From: an uncultured bacterium | GTDB taxonomy: Bacteria; Hydrothermota; UBA3073; NMUJ01; CBEVQO01 | Reading direction: 5' to 3' | Length of the DNA stretch: 64,000 bases | Assembly: GCA_965552055.1 (NCBI GenBank) | Contig: CBEVQO010000005.1 | Location: 13,373 to 77,372, forward strand | Shown here: piece after piece, positions 1-43,216 of the stretch | How positions within the stretch are numbered: position 1 is the stretch's first letter | Layout of the letters: the number at the start of each line of letters is the position of its first letter | Notes under the pieces: generated by a model | Databases searched by the model: none | Told to the model about the DNA's origin: nothing | What the model saw: only the letters and a program-made list of their open reading frames with translations | Position numbers and translations under genes: made by a program

Positions 1-650
1 GAATGAGAAAGGGGCAAAAGATTAATTTCATCAATCACTCTGCCATATAGAGGAGCCTCTGGATTATGCACTTGTAAAAATTGATAAAGCAAACCAACTT
101 CAGAACCTGTCAGCACAACGCATAAATTTTTAAGATTATCATAGATGTATGCAAAAATTTTATCCATGCGATACTTAACAAAACGCCGTAGTTCCTGCGC
201 TTCGTCAAAAATCAATAAAAGGCGTGTAGCCTTTTTATTCGCAATGTCATTTAATTTTTCGAAAATATCGATGAAGTCGAGTTTTTTATCATCAAATTCT
301 ACAGAAATTCCATAAAAAGAAATTCCTTTCACTTTTTGCAAAATATCAATAAAAATTTTTCGCCAGCCTGCATTTCTCTTTATGAAGGTGTCTATTGAAT
401 TACAAAGTTCAAGTAAAAAACTCCTTTTGTCGATTAAGCCTTCAGATGGTAGCCTCCCGCAATCAAATACAATTCCTTTTAATTTATAAGAGTTTAAGGC
501 AGTAAGTAAAAGCGAAGTTTTACCAGTTCGCCTCAAACCTTTTATGATGAAAAGAGGAGAGGATAAAGCAAATTCCCTAAATTTTTTCAATTCATCTTCC
601 CTGTCAAAAAAATCTTTTCTATTTACCTTGGGTCTCGGGTCAAAATACAT
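1..650 (-). CDS. P-loop ATPase (archaeal-type AAA-like ATPase family), N-terminal 216 codons; gene continues past window start
   Basis: Minus-strand frame open from ATG at 648-650 (AGGGGG 4 nt upstream) to the window edge. Translation MYFDPRPKVNRKDFFDREDEL... has Walker A GLRRTGKTS and Walker B LLLIFDEAQ. Absent from the ORF track only because no stop lies inside the window. Confidence 0.6.
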   Translation of the reverse strand, partial: MYFDPRPKVNRKDFFDREDELKKFREFALSSPLFIIKGLRRTGKTSLLLTALNSYKLKGIVFDCGRLPSEGLIDKRSFLLELCNSIDTFIKRNAGWRKIFIDILQKVKGISFYGISVEFDDKKLDFIDIFEKLNDIANKKATRLLLIFDEAQELRRFVKYRMDKIFAYIYDNLKNLCVVLTGSEVGLLYQFLQVHNPEAPLYGRVIDEINLLPLSH

Positions 651-703
651 ACTACCCCCTGGTAGTTACTACCACCTGATAGTATATTCGAAATGTCATT
701 ATG

Positions 704-1051
704 TCAATAAATTTTAAACAAATGGGATTTACATCTACAATCAGATGAGCCAAAGTTTTCAACACAATCAAAATATTTTGCCAGATTTTGGGCAATTTTA
801 CATTCGAAAGATTTTTCATTTGTCTCAATACAAAAAGCACAGATAGGAACTGCTTTTCTCAAAAGGTAATCGATATGCCAGTGCAATTTCTTATCCCGTG
901 AAAAATGCCTTTTAATACGAGGAAATAAACCCTGTAATGCCGACCCCACATATACATAAAAACCTTTTTCAAAAAAGATTTCACCAAGTTTCCCTATTTT
1001 TATCCTCTGAGAGACAGGAAGCCAGATTAAAAGAGCATAAACGCCTTTTAT
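704..1051 (-). CDS. GIY-YIG nuclease-superfamily protein (DUF123-like); N-terminal boundary unresolved
   Basis: ORF-track entry 704..949 starts at GTG, but the same frame is open upstream to a stop at 1085-1087 and encodes ...KGVYALLIWLPVSQRIKIGKLGEIFFEKGFYVYVGSA... (GIY- and YIG-like strands). This is followed by HWHIDYL and a C-terminal Cys cluster (CVENFGSSDCRCKSH). No ATG/GTG/TTG lies upstream of the GVY motif. Confidence 0.45.
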   Translation of the reverse strand: MKGVYALLIWLPVSQRIKIGKLGEIFFEKGFYVYVGSALQGLFPRIKRHFSRDKKLHWHIDYLLRKAVPICAFCIETNEKSFECKIAQNLAKYFDCVENFGSSDCRCKSHLFKIY

Positions 1052-2364
1052 TTTTTCTCCTTTTTCCTCTTCATTATCACCGATTTACCGTATTTGAAAA
1101 GGTGTACAAGAGGACGATGGGCAGGACACTGGAAAGCACAGCATCCACATTCAATGCAGTCAAGCAAGCCCCATTCTTCTGCTTCATCAAATTTGCCTTT
1201 CTCAACAAAGTCAGCAATATAAACAGGAGTAAGATGCATCGGACAAACTTCAAGACAACATCCACATCTTATACAATTGGTTTCATGTGGTAGATATACA
1301 TTTTGAATACTTTGAACAAGAATACCAGATGTGCCTTTCACTACGGGTACTTCATCCGATGCCTGAGCTATACCCATCATGGGACCGCCCATTATCACTT
1401 TGCCCGGTGTGTCTATGTATCCTTCACAAAAATCAATCAAGTCTTTAAACAAAGTGCCAATTCTACAAATTAAATTTTTGGGATTTATAACATCACCTGT
1501 TACTGTGATAGCACGCTCGACAAGTGGCTTTCCATATTTGCATGCTTCATAAATCGCAATGCATGTGCCTACATTTTGCACATAACAGCCGATGTGAAAG
1601 GGAAGACCACCAGATGGCACCTCACGCCCAGTTATCGCTTTAATGAGCTGTTTTTCCGCACCCTGGGGATATTTTGTTTTCAAAACTTTTATTTCAAAGC
1701 CATCGTCTTCTTTCAATTCGTTTTCCATCACTTTTATTGCTTCTGGTTTATTATCTTCAATTGCTATGTAGCCTTTTTTTGCATTGAGAGCACGCATTAT
1801 GAGTTTGCCACCTTCGATGATTTCTCTTGGACGCTCAAGCATCAATCTGTAATCACAGGTAAGATAAGGCTCGCATTCACATCCATTTAAGATTACGATT
1901 TCAACGGGATATTCAGGTGGGGGAGAGAGTTTCACATGGGTGGGAAATGCAGCACCACCGAGACCAACGATACCTGCTTCTTTAACTGCCTCAACAATAT
2001 CTTTTGGCGAAAGTTTATCCGTATCTCTCTCTGTGAGGGAAATCCATTCATCTTTTTCATCGCTTTCGATTATGCACGATAAAACTTCCCGGCCAAGTAC
2101 GGGATGGGGATAGGGGGCAACATCTATCACTTTGCCAGATATTGTAGCGTGAATGTTAGCAGAGATAAATCCTTGCAGTTCACCTATTTTTTGACCTGTT
2201 TTAACTACATCGCCTTTTTTCACGAGTGGTTTGGCAGGTGCACCTGTATGCTGTGAGAATGGTATTACAACTTTCTTTGGCAGGGGTGCTTTCTCCAGTT
2301 TGCTGTCTTTTGTAATTTTACATTCTGGTGGATGGACACCTCCTTTAAATGATAGTTTACCCAT
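1048..2364 (-). CDS. RnfC-family FeS flavoprotein (SLBB / NADH-binding / two 4Fe-4S motifs), not in an rnf operon
   Basis: N-terminus MGKLSFKGGVHPPE and the block GAAFPTHVKL...ILNGCECEPYLTCDYRLM are RnfC-like. Two ferredoxin motifs CIRCGCCLEVCP and CIECGCCAFQCP. ORF track starts at GTG 2370; the ATG at 2362-2364 with GAGG 5 nt upstream is the more likely start. Confidence 0.7.
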   Translation of the reverse strand: MGKLSFKGGVHPPECKITKDSKLEKAPLPKKVVIPFSQHTGAPAKPLVKKGDVVKTGQKIGELQGFISANIHATISGKVIDVAPYPHPVLGREVLSCIIESDEKDEWISLTERDTDKLSPKDIVEAVKEAGIVGLGGAAFPTHVKLSPPPEYPVEIVILNGCECEPYLTCDYRLMLERPREIIEGGKLIMRALNAKKGYIAIEDNKPEAIKVMENELKEDDGFEIKVLKTKYPQGAEKQLIKAITGREVPSGGLPFHIGCYVQNVGTCIAIYEACKYGKPLVERAITVTGDVINPKNLICRIGTLFKDLIDFCEGYIDTPGKVIMGGPMMGIAQASDEVPVVKGTSGILVQSIQNVYLPHETNCIRCGCCLEVCPMHLTPVYIADFVEKGKFDEAEEWGLLDCIECGCCAFQCPAHRPLVHLFKYGKSVIMKRKKEKK

Positions 2365-2384
2365 CATCACCTCACATTTCTATA

Positions 2385-2411
2385 AACTTAATCAATATAC
2401 AGGTATGTCAA
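2385..2411 (-). promoter_or_regulatory. sigma70-like promoter (TTGACA-N15-TAAGTT) for the RnfC/GIY-YIG/ATPase genes
   Basis: Minus-strand TTGACA at 2411-2406 and TAAGTT at 2390-2385. Same ~45-nt block as the promoter upstream of the response-regulator gene at 11189-11215. Confidence 0.45.
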
Positions 2412-2413
2412 CA

Positions 2414-2521
2414 ATTTTTAGCCCCGCCTCCCTATCCCCACCGCCCTCGTGCACACCCCTCCTTTCAGTCGGGGTGTTGACTCACAACCCGTATGTAATA
2501 AGCTCGGCTACGCCTCGCATT
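2414..2521 (-). repeat. Intergenic GC/G-tract-rich repeat, copy 1
   Basis: Plus-strand text atttttagccccgcctccctatccccaccgccctcgtgcacacccctcctttcagtcggggtgttgactcacaacccgtatgtaataagctcggctacgcctcgca. Shares blocks with copies at ~11218-11296, ~15680-15846 and (reverse complement) ~24161-24266. Contains inverted repeat ACACCCC/GGGGTGT (2453-2459 / 2471-2477). Confidence 0.5.
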
Positions 2522-2539
2522 AAAAATTTTAAAGCCGCT

Positions 2540-3196
2540 CTAATATTCACCTTTGTGGTGTTTTATGACTTTGCCTTCTACCATAAATATCACATCTTCA
2601 CAGATGTTTGTAGATAAATCTCCTATGCGCTCTAATGCATGAGAAATTCTCAACAAATGCAGTGAGCGCTCGATGGTAGATGGGTCCGAACACATATAAG
2701 TAATTAGCTCTCTTAAAATCTGCTCACCTAAATTATCAACAATTTCATCACTCTGGCACACTATCCTGGCCTTCTCTGTATCTTCGTTTATAAAAGAATC
2801 TATGGCTTTCTTTAACATATTTGTGGCTTCTTCAGCCATCCTTGGAATATCAATTAATGGTTTGACAGGCGGTCTTTCTATCAAAAACATGGCACTTTGT
2901 GATATATTTACTGCTAAATCGCCGATCCTCTCTAAATCGTTATTCATTTTTAAAATCATAAGAATAGTTCTTAAATTTTTTGCCTCTGGCTGATACAGGG
3001 CGATTAAATTTGTGCATAATTCATCTAATTCTATCTCAAATTCATTCATCTTTGGTTCATATTCTTCTATTACTTCTTTTAAAATTTCTTTCCTTTTTTC
3101 AATAAGTCCTTTGATTGACTTTCTAACCATATCTTCAGCCAGTCCTGCCATCTCAATTAATTTCTTTTTTAATATATTGATTTTTTCTGCAAGCAT
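2540..3196 (-). CDS. phoU: Phosphate transport system regulator PhoU
   Basis: 218 aa with two repeated halves, each carrying LERIGD (LERIGDLAVNI, LERIGDLSTNI). Sits directly downstream of pstB. Confidence 0.85.
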   Translation of the reverse strand: MLAEKINILKKKLIEMAGLAEDMVRKSIKGLIEKRKEILKEVIEEYEPKMNEFEIELDELCTNLIALYQPEAKNLRTILMILKMNNDLERIGDLAVNISQSAMFLIERPPVKPLIDIPRMAEEATNMLKKAIDSFINEDTEKARIVCQSDEIVDNLGEQILRELITYMCSDPSTIERSLHLLRISHALERIGDLSTNICEDVIFMVEGKVIKHHKGEY

Positions 3197-3205
3197 ATCA
3201 CCTCC

Positions 3206-3961
3206 TTATCCAAATTTACCCATTAGATAATCTTCTGTACGCTTATCCCTGGGTCTTGTAAATACTTCTTCAGTTGGACCATATTCTATAAACTCTCCAT
3301 GCATAAGAAATGCTACATAGTCAGATACTCTTGCTGCTTGTTGAATATTGTGAGTTACGATAATTATTGTATATTTATTTTTCAAGTTTTCAAGTAATTC
3401 TTCGAGTTTCGCAGTAGCTATTGGGTCTAAAGCAGATGCAGGTTCATCAAGTAGTATTATTTCGGGCTCAACAGCCAGTGCCCTTGCTATACAAAGTCGT
3501 TGCTGCTGACCACCTGAAAGTGCGAGTGCAGAAGTATGTAATCTATCTTTAACTTCATCGAAAAGATTAGCATCTATCAGTGCCTTCTCAACCCTTTCCT
3601 GTAATTCTCTTTTATTTTTAACTCCATGAATTTTTAGTCCATATGCCACATTCTCAAATATTGATTTGGGTAAAGGATTGGGCTTCTGGAATACCATGCC
3701 TACTCGTTTGCGAAGCTCATACACATCGATGTCATCAGAATATATATCTTTGCCGTCAATAAGAATTTGTCCCTCTACTCTTGCATCATCAATTAAATCT
3801 ATCATTCGGTTGATGCATCTTAGAAAAGTAGATTTACCACAGCCAGATGGTCCCATTATCGCAGTTATCTTATTTTCCTTTATAGATATGTTATTATTAA
3901 CCAAAACATGTTTATCCCCGTACCATACATTTAAATTCTTAACGATTATTTTGTCTACCAT
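3206..3961 (-). CDS. pstB: Phosphate ABC transporter ATP-binding protein PstB
   Basis: Walker [13 protein letters not shown] signature [15 protein letters not shown], Walker [13 protein letters not shown]. Position within pstSCAB order. Confidence 0.9.
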
Positions 3962-10499: not shown

Positions 10500-11176
10500 T
10501 CTTCTATTTTGTAGCCTATTCCTCTTACGCTTTTTATAAATTTCTTGGCTTTGCCTAATTTTTCTCTTAAATTCTTAATATGGACATCTACTGTCCTATC
10601 CAGAACAACTTTATCAATTCCCCATAATTTATCCAGAATCTGGTCCCTTGTAAATACCCAGCCTTTTCTTTCTGCCAGTATTTTTAGAATCCTGAATTCC
10701 GTTGGAGTTAAGTCCACTTTTTTATTTTCAACAAAGACTTCATATTTATTGAGGTCTATTACGAGGATATCACCTATTTTAATCTTTTTGCAGGTATCAT
10801 GCGGTGCTTTCCTTCTTAAGACTGCTTTTACTCTGGCAACTAACTCCCTTGGTGAGAAGGGCTTTGTCACATAATCATCTGCTCCCAGTTCCAGACCCAA
10901 AACTTTATCTGCTTCGGTAGTGCGTGCGGTAAGCATAATGATAGGAATAGATTTAAATTCATCTTTTGATTTTAGATACTTACAAACCTCAAAGCCATCC
11001 ATATCAGGAAGCATGAGATCCAAAATTATAAGGTCAGGTATCTGTGAGGATAAAAATTCGAAGAAATCTTCAGCATTCTGAAAGCATTTAACTTTAAAAC
11101 CATGCTTAGTGAGATGTAAAGATACAAGCTCTAAAATATCAGGCTCATCATCTATCACAGCTATTAATTCATTCAT
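10496..11176 (-). CDS. OmpR/PhoB-family response regulator (PhoB-like)
   Basis: Receiver domain (DDEPDIL, LDLMLPDMDGFEV, conserved Lys in YVTKPF) plus winged-helix output (LTPTEFRILKILAERKGWVFTRDQI). First gene of the phosphate cluster. Confidence 0.85.
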   Translation of the reverse strand: MNELIAVIDDEPDILELVSLHLTKHGFKVKCFQNAEDFFEFLSSQIPDLIILDLMLPDMDGFEVCKYLKSKDEFKSIPIIMLTARTTEADKVLGLELGADDYVTKPFSPRELVARVKAVLRRKAPHDTCKKIKIGDILVIDLNKYEVFVENKKVDLTPTEFRILKILAERKGWVFTRDQILDKLWGIDKVVLDRTVDVHIKNLREKLGKAKKFIKSVRGIGYKIEE

Positions 11177-11188
11177 CGCATTTCTCTA

Positions 11189-11215
11189 AACTTATTCAAT
11201 ATACAGGTATGTCAA
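11189..11215 (-). promoter_or_regulatory. sigma70-like promoter (TTGACA-N15-TAAGTT) for the Pho cluster; near-leaderless
   Basis: Minus-strand TTGACA 11215-11210 and TAAGTT 11194-11189. The ATG at 11176 lies about 12 nt after the -10 with no SD. Block is near-identical to 2372-2416. Confidence 0.45.
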
Positions 11216-11217
11216 CA

Positions 11218-11296
11218 ATTTTTAGCCCACCTCCCTATCCCCACCTCCCTATCCCCACCCCACAACCCATTGGTAATTAGCTCGCTTACGCTCGCA
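11218..11296 (-). repeat. Intergenic GC/G-tract-rich repeat, copy 2 (internal 14-bp tandem duplication)
   Basis: atttttagcccacctccctatccccacctccctatccccaccccacaacccattggtaattagctcgcttacgctcgca. Tandem 14-mer acctccctatcccc at 11229-11242 and 11243-11256. Lacks the hairpin block seen in copies 1 and 4. Confidence 0.5.
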
Positions 11297-11303
11297 TTTT
11301 TAC

Positions 11304-11339: not shown

Positions 11340-12041
11340 ATGAATCTAAAGGAAGTTCAAAATAGACTTCAAGAAATTAAAAATAAAGGATTTGTGCCAT
11401 CTTTAAGAAGAGGAACAACAGGAATTGGATACACCTTTGAGATACTTTTTGGAATAAAGGAAAACAATATCCCAATCCCAGACATCGGCGGAAGAGTTGA
11501 AATTAAAACAATAAGAAGAGATTCGCAATCTTTAATAACATTATTTACTTTTAATAGAGGCGTCTGGCATATAAAGCAAAAAGAACTAATCAAAAAATAT
11601 GGATATGTTGATAAAAAGGGTAGATATGCATTAAAAAATACGGTTTTTTATGGCAAATCCATTCCACAAGGAATATCATTAGAAGTAGATGAAGATAAAA
11701 ACACTATTCATTTAGTTGATACGAATACAAAGAAAGTCCTTGCAACATGGGATGTTTATGTCATTGTCGGTATATTTATGACAAAATTGAGCAAATTATT
11801 ACTCGTAATAGCTGATAGAAAGAAAGAGAAAGGTAAAGAATATTTTCACTACAATGAAGCTTACCTTTTGACAGATCCCAGTGCTCGAAATTTTATAAAA
11901 GCATTTAAAAATTCCCTAATAGGCATTGATATTAGAATGCATCTAAAAGAAAGCGGAGAAGTTAGAAATAGAGGAACTGCATTCCGTATAAAAGAAAAGG
12001 ATTTATTAGAACTTTATGAAAATCGCAAGAAACTTATTTAA
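11340..12041 (+). CDS. Putative type II restriction endonuclease, MutH/MvaI/BcnI-like PD-ExK fold
   Basis: 233 aa with a candidate PD...ExK active site (IPIPDIGGRVEIKT) in a MutH-like arrangement. Stop is 2 nt before the SPPY methyltransferase gene. Confidence 0.5.
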   Translation: MNLKEVQNRLQEIKNKGFVPSLRRGTTGIGYTFEILFGIKENNIPIPDIGGRVEIKTIRRDSQSLITLFTFNRGVWHIKQKELIKKYGYVDKKGRYALKNTVFYGKSIPQGISLEVDEDKNTIHLVDTNTKKVLATWDVYVIVGIFMTKLSKLLLVIADRKKEKGKEYFHYNEAYLLTDPSARNFIKAFKNSLIGIDIRMHLKESGEVRNRGTAFRIKEKDLLELYENRKKLI

Positions 12042-12043
12042 AA

Positions 12044-13312
12044 ATGCCTGCAATTATGCATAGATTTAAAAAATATAGAGACAAAACATGGGATTTTCGT
12101 ATGGCGAATACAAAGCAATATACTCATTGTTTTCATTCTTATCCTGCAATGATGATACCGCAAGTCGCAGGACGCATTTTGGATGAATTTGGAAAAAATT
12201 CTAAACTTTTATTCGATCCATATTGCGGTACAGGAACTTCTTTAGTAGAAGCAAATTTAAGAGGCATAAATGCTATCGGCACAGACATTAACCCATTGGC
12301 TAGATTAATAGCTAAAGTTAAAACAACCATTATTCCTTTAAAATCTTTGGATTTATATATAAAAGATTTCAACGATTTTGTTCTTTCAATACGATTAGGA
12401 GGGAGAAAAGTTTCTCCTAAAATTCCTAATTTTAAAAATATCGATTATTGGTTCAAAAAAGAAACACAATATTGGCTCGCTGTCATTAAAGAATATATTG
12501 AAAAAATTGATAACGAAGATATTAGGGACTTCTTTAAAGTAGCATTTAGTGAAACAGTAAGAGAAGTATCGTTGACCCGAAATAGTGAATTTAAACTATA
12601 TAGAATGAGTGAAAAGCAAATAGAGAAATTTAATCCCGATGTTTTCTTTATAATGATGGAGAAATTAATAAGAAATAGAAATGGAATGGCAGAATATATC
12701 AAAATAAAAAAGAACAAAGCATCTTCTAAAATCTACGATTTTAACACAGTCTATGAGATTCCATTCGATATAATTCCACCAGAAAGTATAGATATCGTGG
12801 TAACTTCTCCACCATATGGTGATTCTAGAACCACAGTAGCATATGGACAATTTTCTCGACTCGCTAACCAATGGTTGGAATTTGAAGAAACTAACGAAGT
12901 AGATAAAAAGTCAATAGGTGGAGTAAGAAAGAAAGAATATAGAAATTTTAATGTTGAAGTGTTAGACAAAGTGCTATTTAAAATTGCACGAATAGATGAA
13001 AAAAGATTATATGATGTGATTTCATTTTACATAGACTATGAAAAATCCATAAATAATGTTGCTAAAGTTGTTAAAAAGGGCGGTATTGTAGCGTATGTAG
13101 TGGGTAATCGCAAGGTAAAGGGCATAGAAATTCCAAATGATGAAATAACCAAAGAATTTTTTGAAAGAAATGGCTTTAAGCATATTAAAACCATAATAAG
13201 AGAAATTCCAAATAAAAGGATGCCTAAAAGAAATAGTCCGAGCAATATAGCAGGAATAACGGATACAACTATGAATTACGAATACATTGTTATCTTGAGA
13301 AAAGAAAAATAA
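12044..13312 (+). CDS. DNA methyltransferase with SPPY motif IV (N4-cytosine/N6-adenine class, alpha-like order)
   Basis: AdoMet motif I FDPYCGTGTSLVEA near the N-terminus and motif IV VVTSPPYGD near residue 255, with the intervening region as presumptive target-recognition domain. Confidence 0.75.
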   Translation: MPAIMHRFKKYRDKTWDFRMANTKQYTHCFHSYPAMMIPQVAGRILDEFGKNSKLLFDPYCGTGTSLVEANLRGINAIGTDINPLARLIAKVKTTIIPLKSLDLYIKDFNDFVLSIRLGGRKVSPKIPNFKNIDYWFKKETQYWLAVIKEYIEKIDNEDIRDFFKVAFSETVREVSLTRNSEFKLYRMSEKQIEKFNPDVFFIMMEKLIRNRNGMAEYIKIKKNKASSKIYDFNTVYEIPFDIIPPESIDIVVTSPPYGDSRTTVAYGQFSRLANQWLEFEETNEVDKKSIGGVRKKEYRNFNVEVLDKVLFKIARIDEKRLYDVISFYIDYEKSINNVAKVVKKGGIVAYVVGNRKVKGIEIPNDEITKEFFERNGFKHIKTIIREIPNKRMPKRNSPSNIAGITDTTMNYEYIVILRKEK

Positions 13313-13318
13313 TTCTTT

Positions 13319-15679
13319 TCACTCATGCTCCTCAAAGCCTTTGAGTAATTCTGCCATTTCTCTCAGTTTCTGGTCAACGAGGTAATTTACGGTATCAGGT
13401 TCATAAGTGCCATCGGGCAAAAGTTTTCCCGCTTTTACACCCGTTAGCAATTCAATGCCTTCATCAATGGTTTTTATCGCATAAATATGAAATTTGCCAT
13501 CTTCAACTGCTTTAACAACTTCTTTATTCAACATTAGATTTTTGATATTCTGATAGGGTATAATCACTCCCTGTGTGCCAGTAAGCCCTTTTGCCTTGCA
13601 TACTCTGAAAAAGCCCTCGATTTTTTCGTTAACACCTCCTATTGGCTGTATCTCACCCCATTGATTCACAGAACCTGTAACAGCGAGGTCCTGACGGATA
13701 GGCAGTCCAGATAGGCACGATAAAAGTGCGTAAAGCTCCGTGCTCGAAGCACTATCACCTTCTATTTCTTCATACATCTGCTCAAAGCATATACTCGCAG
13801 AAAGAGAAAGCGGTTTATTATGTGCATATTTGCCAGCAAGATAAGCACTCAAAATCAAAACTCCTTTGCTGTGAATAGGACCACTCATTTCAATTTCACG
13901 CTCAATGTTTAAAATGCCCTTCTTACCCATATAAACCCTGGCAGTAACACGAACAGGATAGCCAAAAGAATAATCACCGAGCTCAACAACAGTCAAACCA
14001 TTCACCTGACCTACTTTTTTGCCTTCAACATCTATAAGTAATCTGCCTCTTTTTATTTCTTCGTGTATTTTTTCTTCTATCAAATTTACCCTGTAGCGCT
14101 TTTTCTCAAGTGCCTTTTCAACATGCTCTGCCGTCACATATTTACTGCCATCCTGTTCTGCCCAGAAACTCGCTTCAGTTATCACATCAACAACTTCTAT
14201 AAATTTTGTGGATAATTTATCCTGGTCTCCCGTTAACTCCGAGCCATATTCAAGTATGCGTGCTACACCAGATGGGTCAAAATGCTTCAAATTTTTATCC
14301 CTGCATTGTTTCGCAATAAACGAAATATAAGCATCAATATGCTCCTTTGTTCTCGGCATCTCTGTATCAAAATCCGCTTTCACTTTAAACAATTTTCTGA
14401 AATCTTCATCAAATTCATGTAAAAGATGATAAAGCAAAGGTGTACCAATCAAAATAACTTTAACATTATGAGGGATGGGTTCTGGACGCAATGTAACAAC
14501 AGGTGTCTGACGCAATTCCTCACCTATATTCTCAATCCTCAACTCCTTTGTCCTTATCGCACGCTTTAAGGCATCCCATACAAATGGATTTAAAAGGGCT
14601 TCTTTCGCCGGTATTATCAAAAAGCCACCATTAGCCCTGTGAAAAGCTCCGGGTTTTATCAAAGTAAAATGAGTTACGAGATTGCCATCAACACTTTTAT
14701 ACTCAATTCTCCCAAAAAGATTATAATATGTCGGATTTGGTTCAAAAACAAGGGGTGCATGAGATAAATGTGAATTATCAACAAAAACATTAACTTTTAA
14801 GTTAAAAAGAAAATCAGGCTCCTCTTCTCCTGAAAGTGATTTTATCTTTTCAGTAAATTGTGCAAGGTATTCTTTGACACCATCAAAATATTCTTTCAAT
14901 TTCTTATATTTCTGATATTTCGCTTTAAGTTGTTTCACATATCTTCCGACCACATTTTTTACAATCCATTCATCGAGCTGTTTTATTTCTTCTCTCATTA
15001 CATCGTCAATTTCATGTAGCTTATGGAAGGTTTCGTCGAGTTTTTCCTTTATATATGCTCCTGCTTTTTCAATTTTTTCTTTTTCCTTTTTCGGAAGGGC
15101 TTCGAGTTCTTCAAGTGTATATTGTGTGCCATCTTCTTTCAGTGGCACTGCAAAAAGACCTGCAGGACGCCTTAAAACTTCAAAATTATATTTGCGGGCT
15201 TCTTTTTGTAATGATTCTAAAATTTCGGATTTCTTAGCTTCATATTTCTCTTTTATCGTATTGACTTCACGAAAATACTCATCGGATTTGAAAAAATGAG
15301 GCAATTTCTTTTTGCATGCGATTATTAATTTCTCCATATCTTCTGCAAGTTCTTTCCCTTTGCCTTTATCAAGTTCAACAAAAATAGGTTCTTCTGGCTT
15401 TTTAAAATTAAAAAGATAACAATAATCCTTTGGCGGTGGTAATTTTTTTGCGTATTCTTCTACAAATGCACGAACAGTGGAAGTCCTGCCGGTGCCAGGC
15501 AATCCCGATACAAATATGTTAAAGCCATCGGCTTTGGTCTGCAGACCAAATTTTATAGCTTCTACTGCACGCTCCTGACCAATGGTGCCGGTAAGTGGTT
15601 TGACTTCTTCAGTACTCTTAAATTTAAATTGCGAAATATCATATTTTAATCTAAGTTTATCAGCACTTAATTTTTCCAT
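13319..15679 (-). CDS. Lon-like protease (LonB/LonC-type) with degenerate P-loop
   Basis: P-loop-like GLPGTGRTS (Arg in place of the Walker A Lys) and no clear hhhhDE Walker B. C-terminal Lon protease domain with EGDSASST (Ser) and FFRVCKAKG (Lys). ORF track starts at TTG 15751, but the first 24 codons are the intergenic repeat; the likely start is ATG 15677-15679 (MEKLSADK...). Confidence 0.7.
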   Translation of the reverse strand: MEKLSADKLRLKYDISQFKFKSTEEVKPLTGTIGQERAVEAIKFGLQTKADGFNIFVSGLPGTGRTSTVRAFVEEYAKKLPPPKDYCYLFNFKKPEEPIFVELDKGKGKELAEDMEKLIIACKKKLPHFFKSDEYFREVNTIKEKYEAKKSEILESLQKEARKYNFEVLRRPAGLFAVPLKEDGTQYTLEELEALPKKEKEKIEKAGAYIKEKLDETFHKLHEIDDVMREEIKQLDEWIVKNVVGRYVKQLKAKYQKYKKLKEYFDGVKEYLAQFTEKIKSLSGEEEPDFLFNLKVNVFVDNSHLSHAPLVFEPNPTYYNLFGRIEYKSVDGNLVTHFTLIKPGAFHRANGGFLIIPAKEALLNPFVWDALKRAIRTKELRIENIGEELRQTPVVTLRPEPIPHNVKVILIGTPLLYHLLHEFDEDFRKLFKVKADFDTEMPRTKEHIDAYISFIAKQCRDKNLKHFDPSGVARILEYGSELTGDQDKLSTKFIEVVDVITEASFWAEQDGSKYVTAEHVEKALEKKRYRVNLIEEKIHEEIKRGRLLIDVEGKKVGQVNGLTVVELGDYSFGYPVRVTARVYMGKKGILNIEREIEMSGPIHSKGVLILSAYLAGKYAHNKPLSLSASICFEQMYEEIEGDSASSTELYALLSCLSGLPIRQDLAVTGSVNQWGEIQPIGGVNEKIEGFFRVCKAKGLTGTQGVIIPYQNIKNLMLNKEVVKAVEDGKFHIYAIKTIDEGIELLTGVKAGKLLPDGTYEPDTVNYLVDQKLREMAELLKGFEEHE

Positions 15680-15846
15680 TTTTAGCCCCGCCTCCGCTGT
15701 CCCCACCTTCCCGATTAAGTCAGCCCACTCCTTACCCTTCTTTAAACGCAATCAGAAGATAAAGCGTAAACAACCCGAATAACCCACATCCCCGTAATGG
15801 GCTGACATATCAACCCTTATGTAATGTGCTCGGCTGCGCCGAGCAA
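15680..15846 (-). repeat. Intergenic GC/G-tract-rich repeat, copy 3 (divergent middle, perfect 7-bp palindrome)
   Basis: tttttagccccgcctccgctgtccccacc ... caacccttatgtaatgtgctcggctgcgccgagca. Shares 5' and 3' blocks with copies 1, 2 and 4; the middle carries inverted repeat GTCAGCCCA/TGGGCTGAC. Abuts the Lon-like start codon directly (GGGGCTAAAAATG). Confidence 0.45.
15828..15844 (-). terminator. Hairpin GCTCGGC-tgc-GCCGAGC just downstream of the membrane-protein gene stop
   Basis: Perfect 7-bp stem, 3-nt loop, 4 nt after the stop at 15849. Only a weak U-rich tail follows, so terminator function is uncertain; it is also the conserved 3' block of the repeat. Confidence 0.3.
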
Positions 15847-15848
15847 TA

Positions 15849-19261: not shown

Positions 19262-20818
<1,557 letters not shown>

Positions 20819-20851
20819 TTTCTCTCCGGGCAGCACACTTTATTTTTTTAT

Positions 20852-20923
<72 letters not shown>

Positions 20924-20924
20924 T

Positions 20925-20996
20925 GGGGATGTAGCTCAGTGGGAGAGCGCCTGCTTTGCAAGCAGGAGGTCAGGGGTTCGAATCCCCTCATCTCCA
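20925..20996 (+). tRNA. tRNA-Ala (anticodon TGC)
   Basis: Acceptor GGGGAUG/CAUCUCC with G3:U70, anticodon loop UUUGCAA, T-loop GGTTCGAAT. Separated from tRNA-Ile by 1 nt. CCA not encoded. Confidence 0.9.
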
Positions 20997-21040
20997 TGGG
21001 AAGCGATTTAGTTCTTTGACAATCAAGGCAGATGAGCATC

Positions 21041-24047
<3,007 letters not shown>

Positions 24048-24087
24048 GATGCTCATCTGCCTACTTTGTAATTAACCTGTTTTTAAC

Positions 24088-24157
24088 GCCCCGACCGCCT
24101 TCTTAATATTGTCCCTTAGAGGACCTGTGTAAGAATAAGGGGTCGGGGCTTTTTTTT
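24088..24157 (+). terminator. Rho-independent terminator of the rRNA operon (long nested hairpin plus T8)
   Basis: gccccgacc (24088-24096) pairs with ggtcggggc (24141-24149), with inner complementary segments ttctta/taagaa and gtcc/ggac, followed by 8 T at 24150-24157. Confidence 0.6.
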
Positions 24158-24160
24158 ATT

Positions 24161-24266
24161 ACGAGCGATAGCGAGTTTATTACATAAGGGTCTTTTGTCA
24201 CACCCCGACCGAAGGGAGGGGTGTGCACATGGGAAGGTGGGGACTGGGAGGAGGGGCTAAAAATAA
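24161..24266 (+). repeat. Intergenic GC/G-tract-rich repeat, copy 4 (opposite genomic orientation)
   Basis: Reverse complement reads tttttagcccctcctcccagtccccaccttcccatgtgcacacccctcccttcggtcggggtgtgacaaaagacccttatgtaataaactcgctatcgctcgt, colinear with copy 1. Oriented toward the downstream plus-strand promoter. Confidence 0.5.
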
Positions 24267-24306: not shown

Positions 24307-24678
24307 GTGTTGCAAATTCTTTTAATATCTGTAACTATTGAATGTTATGTATGGGGTCAGGTTCGTAATCCCGGTGCTTATGAATTATCTCCCTCTTCTA
24401 ATTTAATTGAGTTAATATCGCGTGCAGGTGGTCCCACAGATTATGCTGACCTTTCTCGTATAAAGGTACTGAGACACGATAAAGTTTATAAAATCAATTT
24501 GAAAAAATTTTCCCGTGATGCTTTTTTTATTCTTGAACAGGGTGATGTGGTAATAGTCCCCCCTAACAGGACATATAAAATTAAAAAATATCTCGAGAAT
24601 ATGATGATACTTATATCTTTTCTTGACATCTTGAGATTTGGTTTAGAACTTTACTGGAGGTTATATGTCGCTAAATGA
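24307..24678 (+). CDS. SLBB-domain protein related to polysaccharide export (Wza-like); possibly 5'-truncated
   Basis: VWGQVRNPGAYELSPSSNLIELISRAGGPTDYADLSRIKVLR...GDVVIVPP matches the SLBB/polysaccharide-export motif. No signal peptide or lipobox; GTG start abuts the promoter. Confidence 0.45.
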   Translation: MLQILLISVTIECYVWGQVRNPGAYELSPSSNLIELISRAGGPTDYADLSRIKVLRHDKVYKINLKKFSRDAFFILEQGDVVIVPPNRTYKIKKYLENMMILISFLDILRFGLELYWRLYVAK

Positions 24679-38086: not shown

Positions 38087-40768
38087 ATGATGGTGATTTT
38101 AATTTTCATACTGGGAACATTAATTGACTCTGCAGGTGGCAAATGTATAATTTCGCCGAAAGAGGATTTTGTAATTAAGGTGACACCCTTTTTATGGATA
38201 AAAATAGAAGATTTACCCGAAATTGTAAAGGAAGCCATAGATTCTGCTCCTTCCTGGCTTCGAGGTCGCTTAACTTTGAATTTTATGAAAATGTACGGTC
38301 AATGTCAAGAAGTTTATGCTGGACTTATTCTTTCTGTTGATAAAAGTTATCGTGATGAAATTGCTTTTCAGATAGCAACGCTTGACCCCCTTATCCTTTA
38401 TCATTATGTAGGTGACCCTTCGCTCTTTGTAGAAAATGTGAAGTTGATTTATAAAAGCGATAGTTTACTCGATTATGTTGAGCTTGTGGAGTATCCAGAA
38501 TATACAACCTGCAGATATAGAATATCTGACCATGGGAAAGATACTTTTGAGATTGAGATTCCGAAAGAGATTTATTACTGGGATATTGTTCATCCTGTAA
38601 TTGGCTGGGAGGCTCCTCTTTATATTGACCCGAAGGTACCTGACCCTTATCATACAGGTGCAGGGGAAGCGCCTCCGCCCCGTGGACATTTCTGGCGCGA
38701 ATATTATCTCTTTTATCCTGATACCGTTGAAAGTACAGTGATATCGGATAATGGTAAAGATACAGTTAAAGAAGGATATGTTTGCACTCCTTTAAAAGAC
38801 CTGTTAAAGGATGAAAAAATATTATGGGCGATGAAGAAAGATACAATAGAAGGTAACGGTGCAATAGGTAAACTTACTCAATGGGTTAAAGATGTTATGG
38901 TTTTTAACTCTGGTAGTGAGCGTCCCTGGCAGCCTGTTCGTGTTTATCACATGCATATGGGGAGGTGTGGTGAGCATGGGCATATTACTGGAGCAGCTGC
39001 AAGAGCAGCTCTTATACCTGCAACTTATATTTTGACACTTTGCAATGACCATGTATGGAATGAATTTTATGACGAAGAATGGCATACATGGGAGCCTGTA
39101 AACACTTATATAAATCATCCTGAAAGCTATGATAACTGGTGGAGCGGAAAGGCAGTGTTACCCTTTGCTTTCAGAGGCGACGGATGCATTATCGATGTTA
39201 CACAAAGATACACCCCGCATTGTACTCTTACCGTGTTTGTTGCAGATAGCGTGGGTAATCCGGTTGATGGTGCATGTGTAAAACTTTATGCAACACATAT
39301 TTATGGTGGGACTTATATATGCGGATGGCATTACACAAATACAGATGGATTGGCAAGATTTATAATCGGTGATAATGTAAGTTATTACATAAAAATAGAA
39401 TCAGACATTGGTAACTATCCTTCAAGTGGAAGTATGCAGATAATAACGATTTCGCAACCAGATACTCATTATTATTATGAGCATTATTTTGATGAATTTT
39501 TACCGCAATTAAATGCAGAAAGTACCCAAATAACAGAACCTGTAGAATATCGAGTTGAGATAACATTTAAACTTGAGGATGAATATACAGAAGCACAAAC
39601 TTTGTTTTCGAATGAACTGGGAGTTGCGCAAAAGTGGTTTAAAAAAGGGTTGCCAAAAATAAACTTTTTCATTTGTGATGAGGAGAATTATAAAAAATAT
39701 CTTGAAGGTGAAAATTTTGATGCTGTTTACATTGCAAAAAATGTAGATTCGGGATATGTGTCTTTTCAATTTCCAGTGCCTCATCTTACAAATTGGTACA
39801 TTGTTTTTATGAATAAAAATAAATGCAAGACTTATGAACTTCTTGAATTTGAAGTGAAGAGCTATCAATTAACTTCAGTAGCACATATTAAAGTTGAGAA
39901 AGCAGTTTATGATTTTGGGACAGTTATAGCAGGTAAATTTTCACAGGATACAATGTGGATTTATAACATTGGACTTGGTGACTTAAAAGTTGATAGTATA
40001 AAATTAATTTCAAATGTTTTTGATTTTGATGATAATTTGCCTTATATGCTTTCCTCGCATGATAGTGTGGGTGTTTTATTATATTTTGCTCCAGAAGATA
40101 CAGGTATTTTTTGTGATACTTTGTTTATTTATTCAGATGACATTGATGCCCAAGAGTTACCGGTAGTTTTGGTTGGTGAGAGTAGAGTGCCCGATATTGA
40201 GTTTGCAGATAGTGTGTGTGATTTTGGTACGGTATCCATAGGCCAAACTGTTTATAAAAGAGAAAAAGTGTGGAATTGCGGGAGTTATCCTTTAAAAATT
40301 GACAGTGTTATCTCGACGAGCAATTCATTTGGTGTTTACTCTCCTTCTTTTCCACAACAGTTAGAAGAGGGTGATACTCTCGAGATGATAATTTATTGTT
40401 CGCCACGGGATACGGGAATTCTTGAAGGCGAGTTTTTGTTCTATTCAAATGATCCCGATGAAAATCCAGCTGTGTTAAAATTAACGGCAAGGGGATATGG
40501 TCTTCAGGAAAAGTTAGGCAGTTTTTATGTGAAATACAATCCAAATCCCTGTAAGGATTTCTGTGTTATTACTTATTATTTGCCAAGAGAAGAAAAAGTT
40601 AGTTTAAAGATATATGATGTATGTGGCAGATGTGTTGAAAAAATTAATTCTTTTGAGAAAACAGGCATTCACAAAATTTTTATTAAAGATTTGCCATCGG
40701 GAGTGTATTTCTGCGAGTTTAAAGCAATGAAAAAATTGCATAGATTTAAGATAATCTTTATAAGATGA
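38087..40768 (+). CDS. Secreted transglutaminase-like domain protein with Ig-like domains and T9SS C-terminal sorting domain
   Basis: Transglutaminase-like core GRCGEHGHITGAAARAALIPATYILTLCNDHVWNEFYDEEWHTWEP (Cys/His). DUF1573-like Ig modules (YDFGTV...NIGLGDLKVDSI). C-terminal tail KIYDVCGRCV...GVYFCEF...FKIIFIR typical of T9SS sorting domains. Confidence 0.6.
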   Translation: MMVILIFILGTLIDSAGGKCIISPKEDFVIKVTPFLWIKIEDLPEIVKEAIDSAPSWLRGRLTLNFMKMYGQCQEVYAGLILSVDKSYRDEIAFQIATLDPLILYHYVGDPSLFVENVKLIYKSDSLLDYVELVEYPEYTTCRYRISDHGKDTFEIEIPKEIYYWDIVHPVIGWEAPLYIDPKVPDPYHTGAGEAPPPRGHFWREYYLFYPDTVESTVISDNGKDTVKEGYVCTPLKDLLKDEKILWAMKKDTIEGNGAIGKLTQWVKDVMVFNSGSERPWQPVRVYHMHMGRCGEHGHITGAAARAALIPATYILTLCNDHVWNEFYDEEWHTWEPVNTYINHPESYDNWWSGKAVLPFAFRGDGCIIDVTQRYTPHCTLTVFVADSVGNPVDGACVKLYATHIYGGTYICGWHYTNTDGLARFIIGDNVSYYIKIESDIGNYPSSGSMQIITISQPDTHYYYEHYFDEFLPQLNAESTQITEPVEYRVEITFKLEDEYTEAQTLFSNELGVAQKWFKKGLPKINFFICDEENYKKYLEGENFDAVYIAKNVDSGYVSFQFPVPHLTNWYIVFMNKNKCKTYELLEFEVKSYQLTSVAHIKVEKAVYDFGTVIAGKFSQDTMWIYNIGLGDLKVDSIKLISNVFDFDDNLPYMLSSHDSVGVLLYFAPEDTGIFCDTLFIYSDDIDAQELPVVLVGESRVPDIEFADSVCDFGTVSIGQTVYKREKVWNCGSYPLKIDSVISTSNSFGVYSPSFPQQLEEGDTLEMIIYCSPRDTGILEGEFLFYSNDPDENPAVLKLTARGYGLQEKLGSFYVKYNPNPCKDFCVITYYLPREEKVSLKIYDVCGRCVEKINSFEKTGIHKIFIKDLPSGVYFCEFKAMKKLHRFKIIFIR

Positions 40769-40798
40769 GATTTAATTCAGAAAGAGAAAGGGAGTGTT

Positions 40799-43141
40799 AT
40801 GAAGAAGTGTGTTTTAATACTATGTGTATTTTGGGGTCTATTAATGGCTAATGCCGATGCTGAGAAATGGGTTGTGGATACTTCTGGTGTAGAGGGCGAA
40901 TCTTTACAGGTGGCGATAGATAAAGCATGGAATGACCCTGGAATTGATACTGTAGTGGTTAAAAACGGGAAATATCATCTTGCTATAAATGGCGATACGG
41001 GTTTAATAATGCGAGATTCTGTTGTATTGATAAGCGAAGGTGGTGCGTACAAATGCACACTTACAGCAATAAAAGAAGATTTCAGTGACACTGCATGGCA
41101 TGTGATTTTTTGTGATACAAGTGGCTTCAAAGATACTGCATCTCATGCAGCACTGATAAAAGGTTTTACAATAAAAGATGGCAAGACAGAGTTCGGTTCT
41201 CCACCGCACAACCAAGGTGGAGGCATTTTCTTATACAGGGCTTCTCCTGTTATTGAATCATGCAATATTGTTTACAATACCGCCTACAATGGAGCAGGCA
41301 TTTACATTGAATATGCTTCACCTATATTGAGGGATAACATAATAGCGCATAATTATGCTTACTATTTTTGCGGAGGCGTTCATATTGCTGACCATTCCTC
41401 ACCTTATTTAAGCGGTAACATTATAAAAGATAACTCGGGATATTATGCAGGTGGTATTTGCATTATAGGTTATTCAAGACCTGAATTGTGCAATAATATT
41501 ATAGAAAAGAATTGGGCGGGTGCTCTTGGTGCGGGCATTTATATCCTTGCTTCTTCTTCAGCAACTCTAAATAATAACATTATTAAAAACAATCATGCCG
41601 ATTATAAAGGAGGCGGTATTTGCATTTTGCAAAATTCTTCCGCGATATTAAGGGCTAGCATTATAAAGGGCAATAGTGTTTATCACCATGGTGGTGCTTT
41701 ATGCATAGGTAAAAATTCTTGGTGTGTGCTTTCGAATAATGTTATTATCGATAATAAAGCTCGTGATTATGGTGGATGTGTTTTTATTTGTGATAATGCT
41801 TCTCTTTTGATGAAAAATTGTGTTATTGCGATGAACAAAGCACTGGAAGGCGGGGTAATATTTGAAAGTTGTTCAAGCAAAACTGTAATTGATTCGTGTT
41901 TTATAATTGATAATGGCAGTCATTCTTCGCGCACGGGTCTTGCATTCATTGATAGCACTGCGGATTCAGGTGTGACATTTAAAATTTCAAATTCAAATGT
42001 TTATTATAATACCTATCAGCCCGATACCGAGATTTATAACTTATCGAGTGTTATGATAGATTTAAAGAACAATTTCTGGTGGGATACAACCGATAGTGAA
42101 ATATCATCATTGATTTACGGCTTAAATGACCATTCTAACTGGCGAAAAGATTTTGTGTCTGGTGTGCCAGGTGAGCCTCTTCAAGTTGATTCTGTAAAAG
42201 TGTATATTGATTCGATGTATTCTGAATTAGCCGATAACATATGGGAACCATGCACCCTTTATTTGAGATTATTCGGCAGAGATAGATTAAGGAATGTGAA
42301 AGAAATAGCCATTGCCATCGTTAAGACATCCATTTACCAGGTAGGGATTGCTGTTAGTTTGTTAGAAACGGATACTTCATCTGGAATATACGAGGGTGAA
42401 ATTTATGTGAAGGAAGTTACAGGAAAGGATACCATTCAAACTGATGATATTTATCAAAGAATAAAGGTTGATTCAATATGGGATACGATAATTGTTTTTC
42501 CTAACATTGATGTTACAAAGAGATACCGTGTAATTTACAAAGGTCCTGATATTGATGTATCTTATAAGAATTATGATTTTGGAAGTATAAATGTTGGAGA
42601 TAGTGCTGATTTTGAATTTTACTGCATGAATAAAGGTATTGCGAATCTTATAATTGATAGTGCAAAAGTAGATTCACCTTTCTTTGTAGTTTCTCCTGTA
42701 TTACCTTGCAGTATCGGGAGTGGTGATAGTGTAAAAATGGTTGTAAGATTTATCCCGCGTGATACGGGCAACTATACGGATACACTTAAAATTTATTCCA
42801 ATGACCCGAATGAACAGGTGATTTATATTTTGCTATCAGGTAGCGCTGTTTCGCCTTTTGTAAAAGAAATAAAACCTGTTAGATTCGAATTTAAAGGCGT
42901 GACCCCCAATCCTTTATGCAATCACGGTAAAATTCATTATGCTGTTCCTGAGAAATCGCACATTAATATAAGAATATATGATGTCACCGGTAGATTCATC
43001 AAAGAAATTATCAATGAAGAAAGTTCACCTGGCTTTTATGATGTTGAATTCAAAATTAATTTACCGGAAGGCGTTTACTTCATCGTAATGGAAGCTGACA
43101 AATTCAAATCGATTCGCAAATTTCTGGTAATAAAATGGTGA
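40799..43141 (+). CDS. Secreted right-handed parallel beta-helix repeat protein with T9SS C-terminal sorting domain
   Basis: Signal peptide; more than 8 repeats of ~23 aa of the form NNII.(D/N)N...GGGI.I.; Ig-like module (YDFGSINVGDSADFEF); tail RIYDVTGRFIKEI...GVYFIVMEADKFKSIRKFLVIKW. Confidence 0.6.
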   Translation: MKKCVLILCVFWGLLMANADAEKWVVDTSGVEGESLQVAIDKAWNDPGIDTVVVKNGKYHLAINGDTGLIMRDSVVLISEGGAYKCTLTAIKEDFSDTAWHVIFCDTSGFKDTASHAALIKGFTIKDGKTEFGSPPHNQGGGIFLYRASPVIESCNIVYNTAYNGAGIYIEYASPILRDNIIAHNYAYYFCGGVHIADHSSPYLSGNIIKDNSGYYAGGICIIGYSRPELCNNIIEKNWAGALGAGIYILASSSATLNNNIIKNNHADYKGGGICILQNSSAILRASIIKGNSVYHHGGALCIGKNSWCVLSNNVIIDNKARDYGGCVFICDNASLLMKNCVIAMNKALEGGVIFESCSSKTVIDSCFIIDNGSHSSRTGLAFIDSTADSGVTFKISNSNVYYNTYQPDTEIYNLSSVMIDLKNNFWWDTTDSEISSLIYGLNDHSNWRKDFVSGVPGEPLQVDSVKVYIDSMYSELADNIWEPCTLYLRLFGRDRLRNVKEIAIAIVKTSIYQVGIAVSLLETDTSSGIYEGEIYVKEVTGKDTIQTDDIYQRIKVDSIWDTIIVFPNIDVTKRYRVIYKGPDIDVSYKNYDFGSINVGDSADFEFYCMNKGIANLIIDSAKVDSPFFVVSPVLPCSIGSGDSVKMVVRFIPRDTGNYTDTLKIYSNDPNEQVIYILLSGSAVSPFVKEIKPVRFEFKGVTPNPLCNHGKIHYAVPEKSHINIRIYDVTGRFIKEIINEESSPGFYDVEFKINLPEGVYFIVMEADKFKSIRKFLVIKW

Positions 43142-43172
43142 TAAAAATTGATAAAAATTTTTAATTTTTAGC

Positions 43173-43199
43173 TTGACAAAGTCAAAATTTGATTAAAAT
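43173..43199 (+). promoter_or_regulatory. sigma70-like promoter (TTGACA-N15-TAAAAT) for the giant surface-protein gene
   Basis: agcTTGACAaagtcaaaatttgatTAAAAT, then SD AGGAGG at 43206-43211 and ATG at 43217. Confidence 0.5.
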
Positions 43200-43216
43200 A
43201 GATAAAGGAGGTTGTT

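Follow-up and report, generated by a model that had tools for sequence, protein, structure and literature searches.

An rnfC gene, a DUF123 GIY-YIG gene and an archaeal-type ATPase gene in an uncultured Hydrothermota bacterium: a probably accidental neighbourhood

Three genes that lie head to tail on one strand invite the question of whether their products also work together. This question is raised by one end of a 64-kb stretch of DNA from an uncultured bacterium of the Hydrothermota (contig CBEVQO010000005.1 of assembly GCA_965552055.1, positions 13,373 to 77,372 of the forward strand), which was analysed at its full length and is called the window here. Positions 1–2370 of the window are occupied by three head-to-tail open reading frames (ORFs) on the minus strand, intact apart from the last one read, which is cut by the window edge. 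In the order of reading they are rnfC, coding for subunit C of the Rnf complex, a gene for a GIY-YIG nuclease-fold protein of the COG1833/DUF123 family, and a gene for an AAA+ ATPase of the ATPase_2 family. A first-pass annotation of the same DNA had described three co-directional minus-strand genes and assigned each to a family, and our ORFs and profile matches confirm both the arrangement and all three assignments. It had also suggested that the combination could be a nucleic-acid-targeting or stress module, or simply a coincidental operon. In our view, these are probably three genes without a common task, brought next to each other by accident in this lineage.

Whether the gene order is kept outside this genome, a point raised with that annotation, was checked, and the trio was found again only in a sister strain, on contig CAYQON010000040.1 (L015) of assembly GCA_964419125.1, whose RnfC (P0243) is 98% identical. 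The order there is phoBR, a sigma factor gene, pstSCAB, phoU, rnfC, the DUF123 gene (uncalled), the ATPase gene, a convergent gene for a coiled-coil protein, and a gene of the TolC/OEP type. Since the two strains are so close, this recurrence does not count as independent evidence. Outside the sister strain the order is not conserved, which supports the coincidental-operon alternative. At 10 further loci with RnfC homologues the trio is absent, and the neighbours of the closest homologues of the ATPase (P0122 and P0125, both 51% identical, with 3 loci) are unrelated and include neither DUF123 nor RnfC.

For the DUF123 family, an alignment scan of metagenome contigs from one collection gave 80 loci, with at least 1.5 kb of sequence upstream in 41 and at least 1.2 kb downstream in 44, and in none of the 80 did tblastn find a match to RnfC, to RnfD/G/E/A or to the full ATPase. 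A neighbour test with family hidden Markov models (HMMs; 113 ATPases, 120 RnfCs), in which both positive controls scored strongly, detected nothing in the 573 ORFs that lie no more than 3 kb from DUF123 at 82 loci. The recurrent neighbours of DUF123 were CutA1, an Mrp/ParA-type ATPase, a ThiI-like protein, and a histidine phosphatase, and on Azospirillum/Sphingobium plasmids they were biotin (bio) genes or cytochrome c; COG1833/DUF123 neighbourhoods have no consistent partner. Each gene of the trio is a routine member of a described family, the evidence speaks against a shared function, and the grouping as such matters little.

Several points weigh against an accidental neighbourhood. The arrangement is kept in both strains, the junction between rnfC and the DUF123 gene is tight, with an overlap of 2 nt and a GGAG motif inside rnfC, and co-expression of this pair is probable. 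The DUF123 and ATPase genes are adjacent and both come from mainly archaeal families, and it is possible that they were transferred together as a pair. Our view also takes rnfDGEAB to lie elsewhere in the genome, which we infer. As for the comparisons themselves, the two strains, with an RnfC identity of 98%, are too close for their common gene order to inform on selection for it, the contexts of ATPase homologues number only three, and many of the DUF123 loci from the single collection are short.

The rnfC gene and the rnf operon

The first gene of the trio, rnfC (1048..2364, minus strand), codes for 438 residues from an ATG at 2364 to a TAA stop at 1050–1048. Alternative in-frame starts are present at ATG 2367 and GTG 2370, and the call in the sister strain is also 438 residues long. 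The product scores 563.5 bits with TIGR01945 (cut-off 245.95), over model positions 3–434 of 435, and 492 bits with the RsxC model NF003454 (cut-off 345), and because these scores exceed the curated cut-offs end to end, the protein, as judged from its sequence, belongs to RnfC proper and is more than RnfC-like. The first-pass description of an RnfC-like FeS flavoprotein is thereby both upheld and sharpened. The Pfam domains of the product are RnfC_N, Complex1_51K (FMN/NADH), SLBB, and a 2x[4Fe-4S] dicluster (Fer4), both CxxCxxCxxxCP motifs, CIRCGCCLEVCP and CIECGCCAFQCP, are found in the translation, and the protein aligns over its full length with the solved RnfC chains 7zc6_C (1e-140), 9eri_C and 8ahx_C (E = 1e-140 to 1e-112).

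Between the two strains, all three genes of the trio are under purifying selection, with ratios of non-synonymous to synonymous difference (pN/pS) that are similar to the values for the pst genes nearby; for rnfC the ratio is 0.06 (33 synonymous and 7 non-synonymous differences). A separate observation concerns the synonymous differences alone: the pS of rnfC (window 1048–2364 against L015 9995–11317) is 0.114, which is 3–10 times that of the flanking genes (0.010–0.037 for the ATPase gene, phoU, pstB, pstA, and pstS), and that of the DUF123 gene is 0.072. The raised value is a hint that rnfC may have recombined with a more divergent allele.

The first-pass annotation had remarked that no genes for rnf membrane subunits accompany rnfC anywhere in the window, and this stands: tblastn with queries from a related operon found no match to RnfD, RnfG, RnfE or RnfA in the 64 kb (RnfB was not queried). 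The order rnfC-D-G-E-A is contiguous in all five RnfC relatives at 48–56% identity. Of two closer relatives, P0244, with an RnfC that is 63% identical, has rnfC followed by rnfD and then by an aldehyde dehydrogenase gene, and P0246, at 65% identity, has rnfC followed by genes for GAPDH and a toxin-antitoxin-like pair. The rnf operon is already loosened in this RnfC clade, and the gene content after rnfC varies. Because a close relative (P0244) keeps rnfD beside rnfC, the most economical assumption is that the other rnf genes of the present genome would be located elsewhere. The window RnfC would then be an ordinary cytoplasmic NADH-oxidising subunit with FMN and Fe-S centres, whose gene became detached from a broken-up rnf operon. 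The nearest named relatives of the protein come from metagenome-assembled genomes of WOR-3 and Stahlbacteria, and we regard the gene as an orphan rnfC in an FCB-type thermophile clade with fragmented rnf operons, where standing alone is no sign of a new redox partner.

Another explanation, in which the DUF123 and ATPase genes had split an otherwise complete rnf operon and rnfD would follow just past the window edge, was rejected: after the ATPase gene, the sister strain has the convergent coiled-coil gene and the TolC-like gene and not rnfD, and the ~1.5 kb that come after the ATPase gene there contain no rnfD/G/E/A gene. The convergent gene (L015 12815–13489, minus strand) overlaps the end of the ATPase gene by 4 nt and codes for a protein of 224 residues, with a long coiled coil in its N-terminal half and a C-terminal domain without a Pfam family above threshold; its database matches are only weak ones of the kind typical of coiled coils.

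PrdC and PduS are RnfC-type proteins encoded without rnf membrane subunits, and in their manner the window RnfC could be a stand-alone NADH-dependent Fe-S flavoprotein, which would power or redox-gate a Cys/His metal cluster in the DUF123 protein. Such a partnership would fit the overlap of the stop and start codons, in an arrangement common to both strains, the lack of rnf membrane-subunit genes nearby, the invariant C/C/C/H cluster of the DUF123 protein, and the fact that another member of the RnfC clade (P0246) is also solitary. However, the protein scores as a true RnfC/RsxC and stays far under the cut-off of the PrdC model (226 bits against 490), and the clade member with 63% identity is still found beside rnfD. 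In addition, PF01986, the DUF123 domain, is neither carried by nor listed with any of the best 120 RnfC homologues, the RnfC domain is absent from the best 120 DUF123 homologues, and no RnfC adjoins any DUF123 homologue at the 82 loci. We regard a redox partnership of the two proteins as most unlikely, and prefer the reading of a detached Rnf subunit.

The DUF123 gene and its start codon

The second gene (704..1051, minus strand) codes for a protein of 115 residues, from a probable ATA start at 1051–1049 to a TGA stop at 706–704. Profile searches place it in PF01986, within the GIY-YIG superfamily (99.5 bits, cut-off 25; E = 1.6e-28), and this match and the conserved motifs agree with the GIY-YIG (DUF123-like) assignment made in the first-pass annotation. 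All 25 columns that are invariant in an alignment of 34 DUF123 members are kept in the window protein, including G3, Y5, Y32, Y34, G36, R45, R48, H49, E83, C84, D104, C105, C107, and H110, and the tyrosines of the GIY and YIG strands, the Arg, the Glu and the C84/C105/C107/H110 cluster are all retained. The protein is 46–60% identical to mainly archaeal members of the family, and its predicted model (pLDDT 95.5) has the alpha/beta fold of GIY-YIG proteins, being nearest to I-TevI, UvrC, EndoII, and Eco29kI.

COG1833 has been described as a mainly archaeal and uncharacterised GIY-YIG family with a His/Cys-rich C-terminus, which occurs sporadically in thermophilic bacteria, where it was ascribed to horizontal transfer, and for which a fusion to EndoIII in Methanococcales suggested a role in base-excision repair (Dunin-Horkawicz et al. 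2006, PMC1564403). We found no characterised member of COG1833 in the literature searched and, by sequence, no solved structure, nor did the literature yield a functional study on DUF123, COG1672 or PF01637. The window protein is presumably a nuclease of the DNA-repair type, and it would represent a stand-alone member of this family that was acquired horizontally by a thermophilic bacterium.

The start of the gene deserves closer consideration. The frame is open from 1084 to the stop codon and contains no ATG, GTG or TTG before 949, and a start at 949 would delete the GIY motif. The Met column of 13 homologues, all of which begin with MKGVY, aligns to the ATA at 1051–1049, a codon that runs into the rnfC stop (aaATAAaa). 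A spacer of 5 nt separates it from a Shine-Dalgarno-like GGAG upstream (1057..1060, minus strand), which lies inside the 3' end of rnfC and may act in initiation at the ATA. Both the ATA (L015 11314–11316) and the GGAG are identical in the sister strain, and since the two strains were assembled independently, a sequencing error at the ATA is unlikely. The ATA start is also why the NCBI assembly of the sister strain lacks an annotation of this gene. Lacking a promoter of its own, and with an ATA that overlaps the stop of rnfC and follows a GGAG, the gene is likely read from the rnfC transcript, on which it would ride, with translation that probably begins at the ATA, at a low level, by weak initiation or by coupling to the termination of rnfC translation.

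An alternative that has to be weighed is that the DUF123 gene is a pseudogene remnant without a start codon, in which case the trio would really be a pair. The lack of ATG, GTG or TTG where the homologues start, the missing call in the sister assembly, and a C-terminal tail that is shorter than in most homologues would all agree with this. Against it, 25 of the 25 invariant residues are kept, no stop interrupts the frame anywhere in the domain, both strains preserve the ATA and the GGAG at their 5-nt spacing, the model is predicted with the high pLDDT given above, and the sole indel between the strains, of one codon, is in frame. The remaining differences comprise 5 synonymous and 3 non-synonymous ones (pN/pS 0.15), that is, a non-synonymous share of 3/8 compared with ~80% under neutrality (binomial estimate, p ~0.01). 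We therefore consider a pseudogene unlikely; as far as sequence comparison can tell, the gene is functional and under purifying selection.

The overlap could also be read as the site of a programmed −1 ribosomal frameshift at the A-rich end of rnfC (GAG AAA AAA TAA), which would make the DUF123 domain a C-terminal extension of RnfC. Taking rnfC as the reference, DUF123 is indeed in the −1 frame, which has no stop in the 11 codons before the ATA, and in the window a run of six A directly precedes the stop, with the GGAG upstream. The run is, however, broken in the sister strain (GAG AAG AAA TAA), although the DUF123 gene is conserved there, no fusion of RnfC and DUF123 occurs among the best 120 homologues of either family, and a GGAG followed by an ATA at the correct spacing is a simpler account of the junction. 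Since the two strains do not share the slippery A-run, this candidate was rejected, and we give it hardly any credence. What the junction more probably holds is a separate, selected and conserved GIY-YIG gene that standard gene callers have missed, an instance of how tightly coupled genes with non-canonical starts escape annotation.

The ATPase gene, promoters and surroundings

The third gene (1..650, minus strand) starts with the ATG at 650–648 and continues off the window, which holds its N-terminal 216 codons. The first-pass annotation had recognised that it is truncated by the window edge, and the full-length protein (P0121), 100% identical over the window fragment, has 368 residues. The fragment matches Pfam ATPase_2 and AAA_14, and the full protein scores 55.4 bits with PF01637 (cut-off 33.2) and, over residues 296–354, 40.6 bits with the winged helix-turn-helix (wHTH) domain MCM_C (cut-off 27). 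A Walker A motif (GLRRTGKTS) and a Walker B motif (LLIFDEAQ) are present, the homology to the PDB entries 2fna and 2qen is full-length (E ~1e-55), and the named homologues are almost all archaeal. The PF01637 match, the Walker motifs and the mostly archaeal homologues bear out the earlier naming as an archaeal-type P-loop ATPase. Against the sister strain the fragment has a pN/pS of 0.11. The archaeal flavour of both the DUF123 and the ATPase genes fits the report that archaeal-type genes are common in thermophilic bacteria (PMC1564403).

A single promoter at 2385–2411 had been proposed for the whole trio, and this was not borne out. In a scan of positions 1–3300 with a sigma-70-like consensus, compared with shuffled sequence, no call was made there, as a perfect TTGACA at 2411–2406 has no acceptable −10 element at 16–18 nt. 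The top hit stands instead in front of the ATPase gene: TTGACA-17-TACTAT at 679..707 (minus strand; 10/12 positions), which overlaps the DUF123 stop, lies ~30 nt before the ATPase start and is identical in L015. It is a consensus match only, and the number of promoter-like hits in the scan, 10 compared with 10.7 in shuffled sequence, shows no excess. The ATPase gene is separated from the DUF123 gene by 53 nt and has its own ribosome-binding site, AGGGGGT, and because of this site and the promoter-like sequence it is probably a separate transcription unit. The likeliest arrangement is that rnfC and the DUF123 gene share one transcript and that the ATPase gene can be transcribed alone; its product would be an archaeal-type AAA+ protein with a winged-helix DNA-binding end, promoted independently of its neighbours. 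Two mutually exclusive short hairpins can be read in the sequence at 651..673 (minus strand), GGTAG-TAA-CTACC and ACTACC-AGGG-GGTAGT, which have the ACTACC segment in common; the second, flagged as terminator-like, covers the Shine-Dalgarno sequence of the ATPase gene before its ATG. They may, speculatively, form a small translational switch, or be meaningless at a high growth temperature.

The trio is flanked on one side by the pst-phoU operon (pstSCAB-phoU) and, in the sister strain, on the other side by the TolC-like gene, and it does not lie in a defence island. PADLOC models returned nothing for RnfC or DUF123, and for the ATPase they returned partial PDC-S01 matches over the AAA core only (residues 115–217 of the protein, against a model of 412 positions; best E = 2.5e-12). 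With a gene order that is not conserved, surroundings that are no defence island and no PADLOC match for RnfC or DUF123, the suggestion of a nucleic-acid-targeting or stress module finds no support. A viral or mobile origin was likewise rejected, as the viral contigs searched contain no relative of either DUF123 or the ATPase. The ATPase gave no plasmid matches, and those of DUF123 are to large proteobacterial replicons, in housekeeping contexts.

These results also bear on the idea that only the last two genes belong together, as an archaeal, co-acquired pair for DNA processing or defence that stands behind rnfC by chance, the ATPase recognising or loading DNA and the GIY-YIG protein cutting it. 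The two genes are adjacent, co-directional, of mainly archaeal families and both under purifying selection, and the ATPase has a winged-helix DNA-binding domain and the weak PDC-S01 matches. However, an ATPase_2 neighbour was found at none of the 82 DUF123 loci, family HMM included, and a DUF123 neighbour at none of the 3 loci of the ATPase homologues P0122 and P0125; the PADLOC match is to a generic AAA core, and copies of the ATPase on viruses or plasmids were not found. A functional pair of this kind seems to us quite unlikely, and we hold it to be very unlikely that a co-acquired pair is expressed from the back of the rnfC transcript, with the nuclease throttled by a termination-coupled ATA start. 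An accidental neighbourhood thus remains our preferred account of all three genes.

The TTGACA at 2411–2406 belongs to a repeated intergenic element upstream of rnfC (2372..2526, minus strand), which also holds a G-quadruplex-type tract (2422–2446) and a GC-rich hairpin. One copy, at 11176–11298 (minus strand), lies upstream of the gene for a phoB-like response regulator, with 92% identity between 2372–2447 and 11176–11250, a similarity that begins at the G-rich tract, includes the TTGACA and ends shortly before the start codon. Another copy, at 24153–24264 (plus strand; 81%), has the opposite orientation and lies upstream of a plus-strand gene at 24307, and fragments are found at 15678–15712 and 15811–15848. 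At least three transcription units, those of rnfC, the phoB-like response regulator, and SLBB/GNVR polysaccharide-export genes, have the element immediately before them. The only three G-quadruplex-type motifs (GGG-N-GGGG-N-GGG-N-GGGG) in the 64 kb are all within copies of the element, each on the same strand as the gene that follows and ~10 nt ahead of the −35 hexamer. The idea that the spacer at 2412–2545, which is rich in GC, holds a structured RNA was considered and rejected, with folding z-scores of −1.6 and −0.6, the stretch being part of the repeated element. Rfam gave no match to it, either at the gathering threshold or at E <= 1.

Further features of the window are mentioned for completeness. 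The restriction-modification genes nearest to the trio, 9 kb away, form a type II pair at 11340–13312 (plus strand), which is divergent from the phoBR operon and consists of an MvaI/BcnI-family endonuclease gene (E = 3.5e-43) and an N4/N6 DNA methyltransferase gene. Another archaeal-flavoured gene, at 13319–15751 (minus strand), codes for a LonC/LonB-like AAA+ protease of 810 residues, an archaeal-type Lon. A complete rRNA operon (16S-tRNA-Ile(GAT)-tRNA-Ala(TGC)-23S) lies at 19266–24049 (plus strand), with no 5S rRNA beside it at the gathering threshold; its GC content of ~61%, against ~36% for the genome, probably fits a thermophile. At 38087–51430 (plus strand), three consecutive genes code for large secreted proteins of 893, 780, and 2737 residues with type-IX-secretion C-terminal sorting domains, and with transglutaminase, beta-helix, FG-GAP, and Ig-like domains. 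These sorting domains and the relatives of the RnfC suggest a lineage of the FCB group.

Comparison with known systems

In its full-length architecture, the window RnfC is the same as the RnfC/RsxC subunit of the ion-translocating Rnf ferredoxin:NAD+ oxidoreductase (7ZC6, 9ERI, 8AHX). It differs from most of its relatives in that its gene is not directly followed by rnfD-G-E-A, and its score with the PrdC model sets it apart from the group of PrdC, the stand-alone RnfC-like protein of proline reductase.

The ATPase shows the same full-length homology to the archaeal ATPase_2 wHTH proteins 2FNA ('Conserved hypothetical protein') and 2QEN ('Walker-type ATPase'), with which it shares the Walker A and B motifs, the MCM_C-type winged helix, and a length of ~360–370 residues. 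Unlike these archaeal proteins it is encoded in a bacterium, and the comparison allows family membership only to be stated.

The DUF123 protein agrees with the COG1833 family in size, in the GIY and YIG strands, and in the Arg and the Glu, and it shares the His/Cys-rich C-terminal cluster that takes the place of the usual Asn. In contrast to the COG1833 link with EndoIII, the window gene is neither fused to nor near an EndoIII gene, and the copy is distinguished from other members of the family by its bacterial host, by an ATA start that overlaps the upstream stop, and by a very short C-terminal tail.

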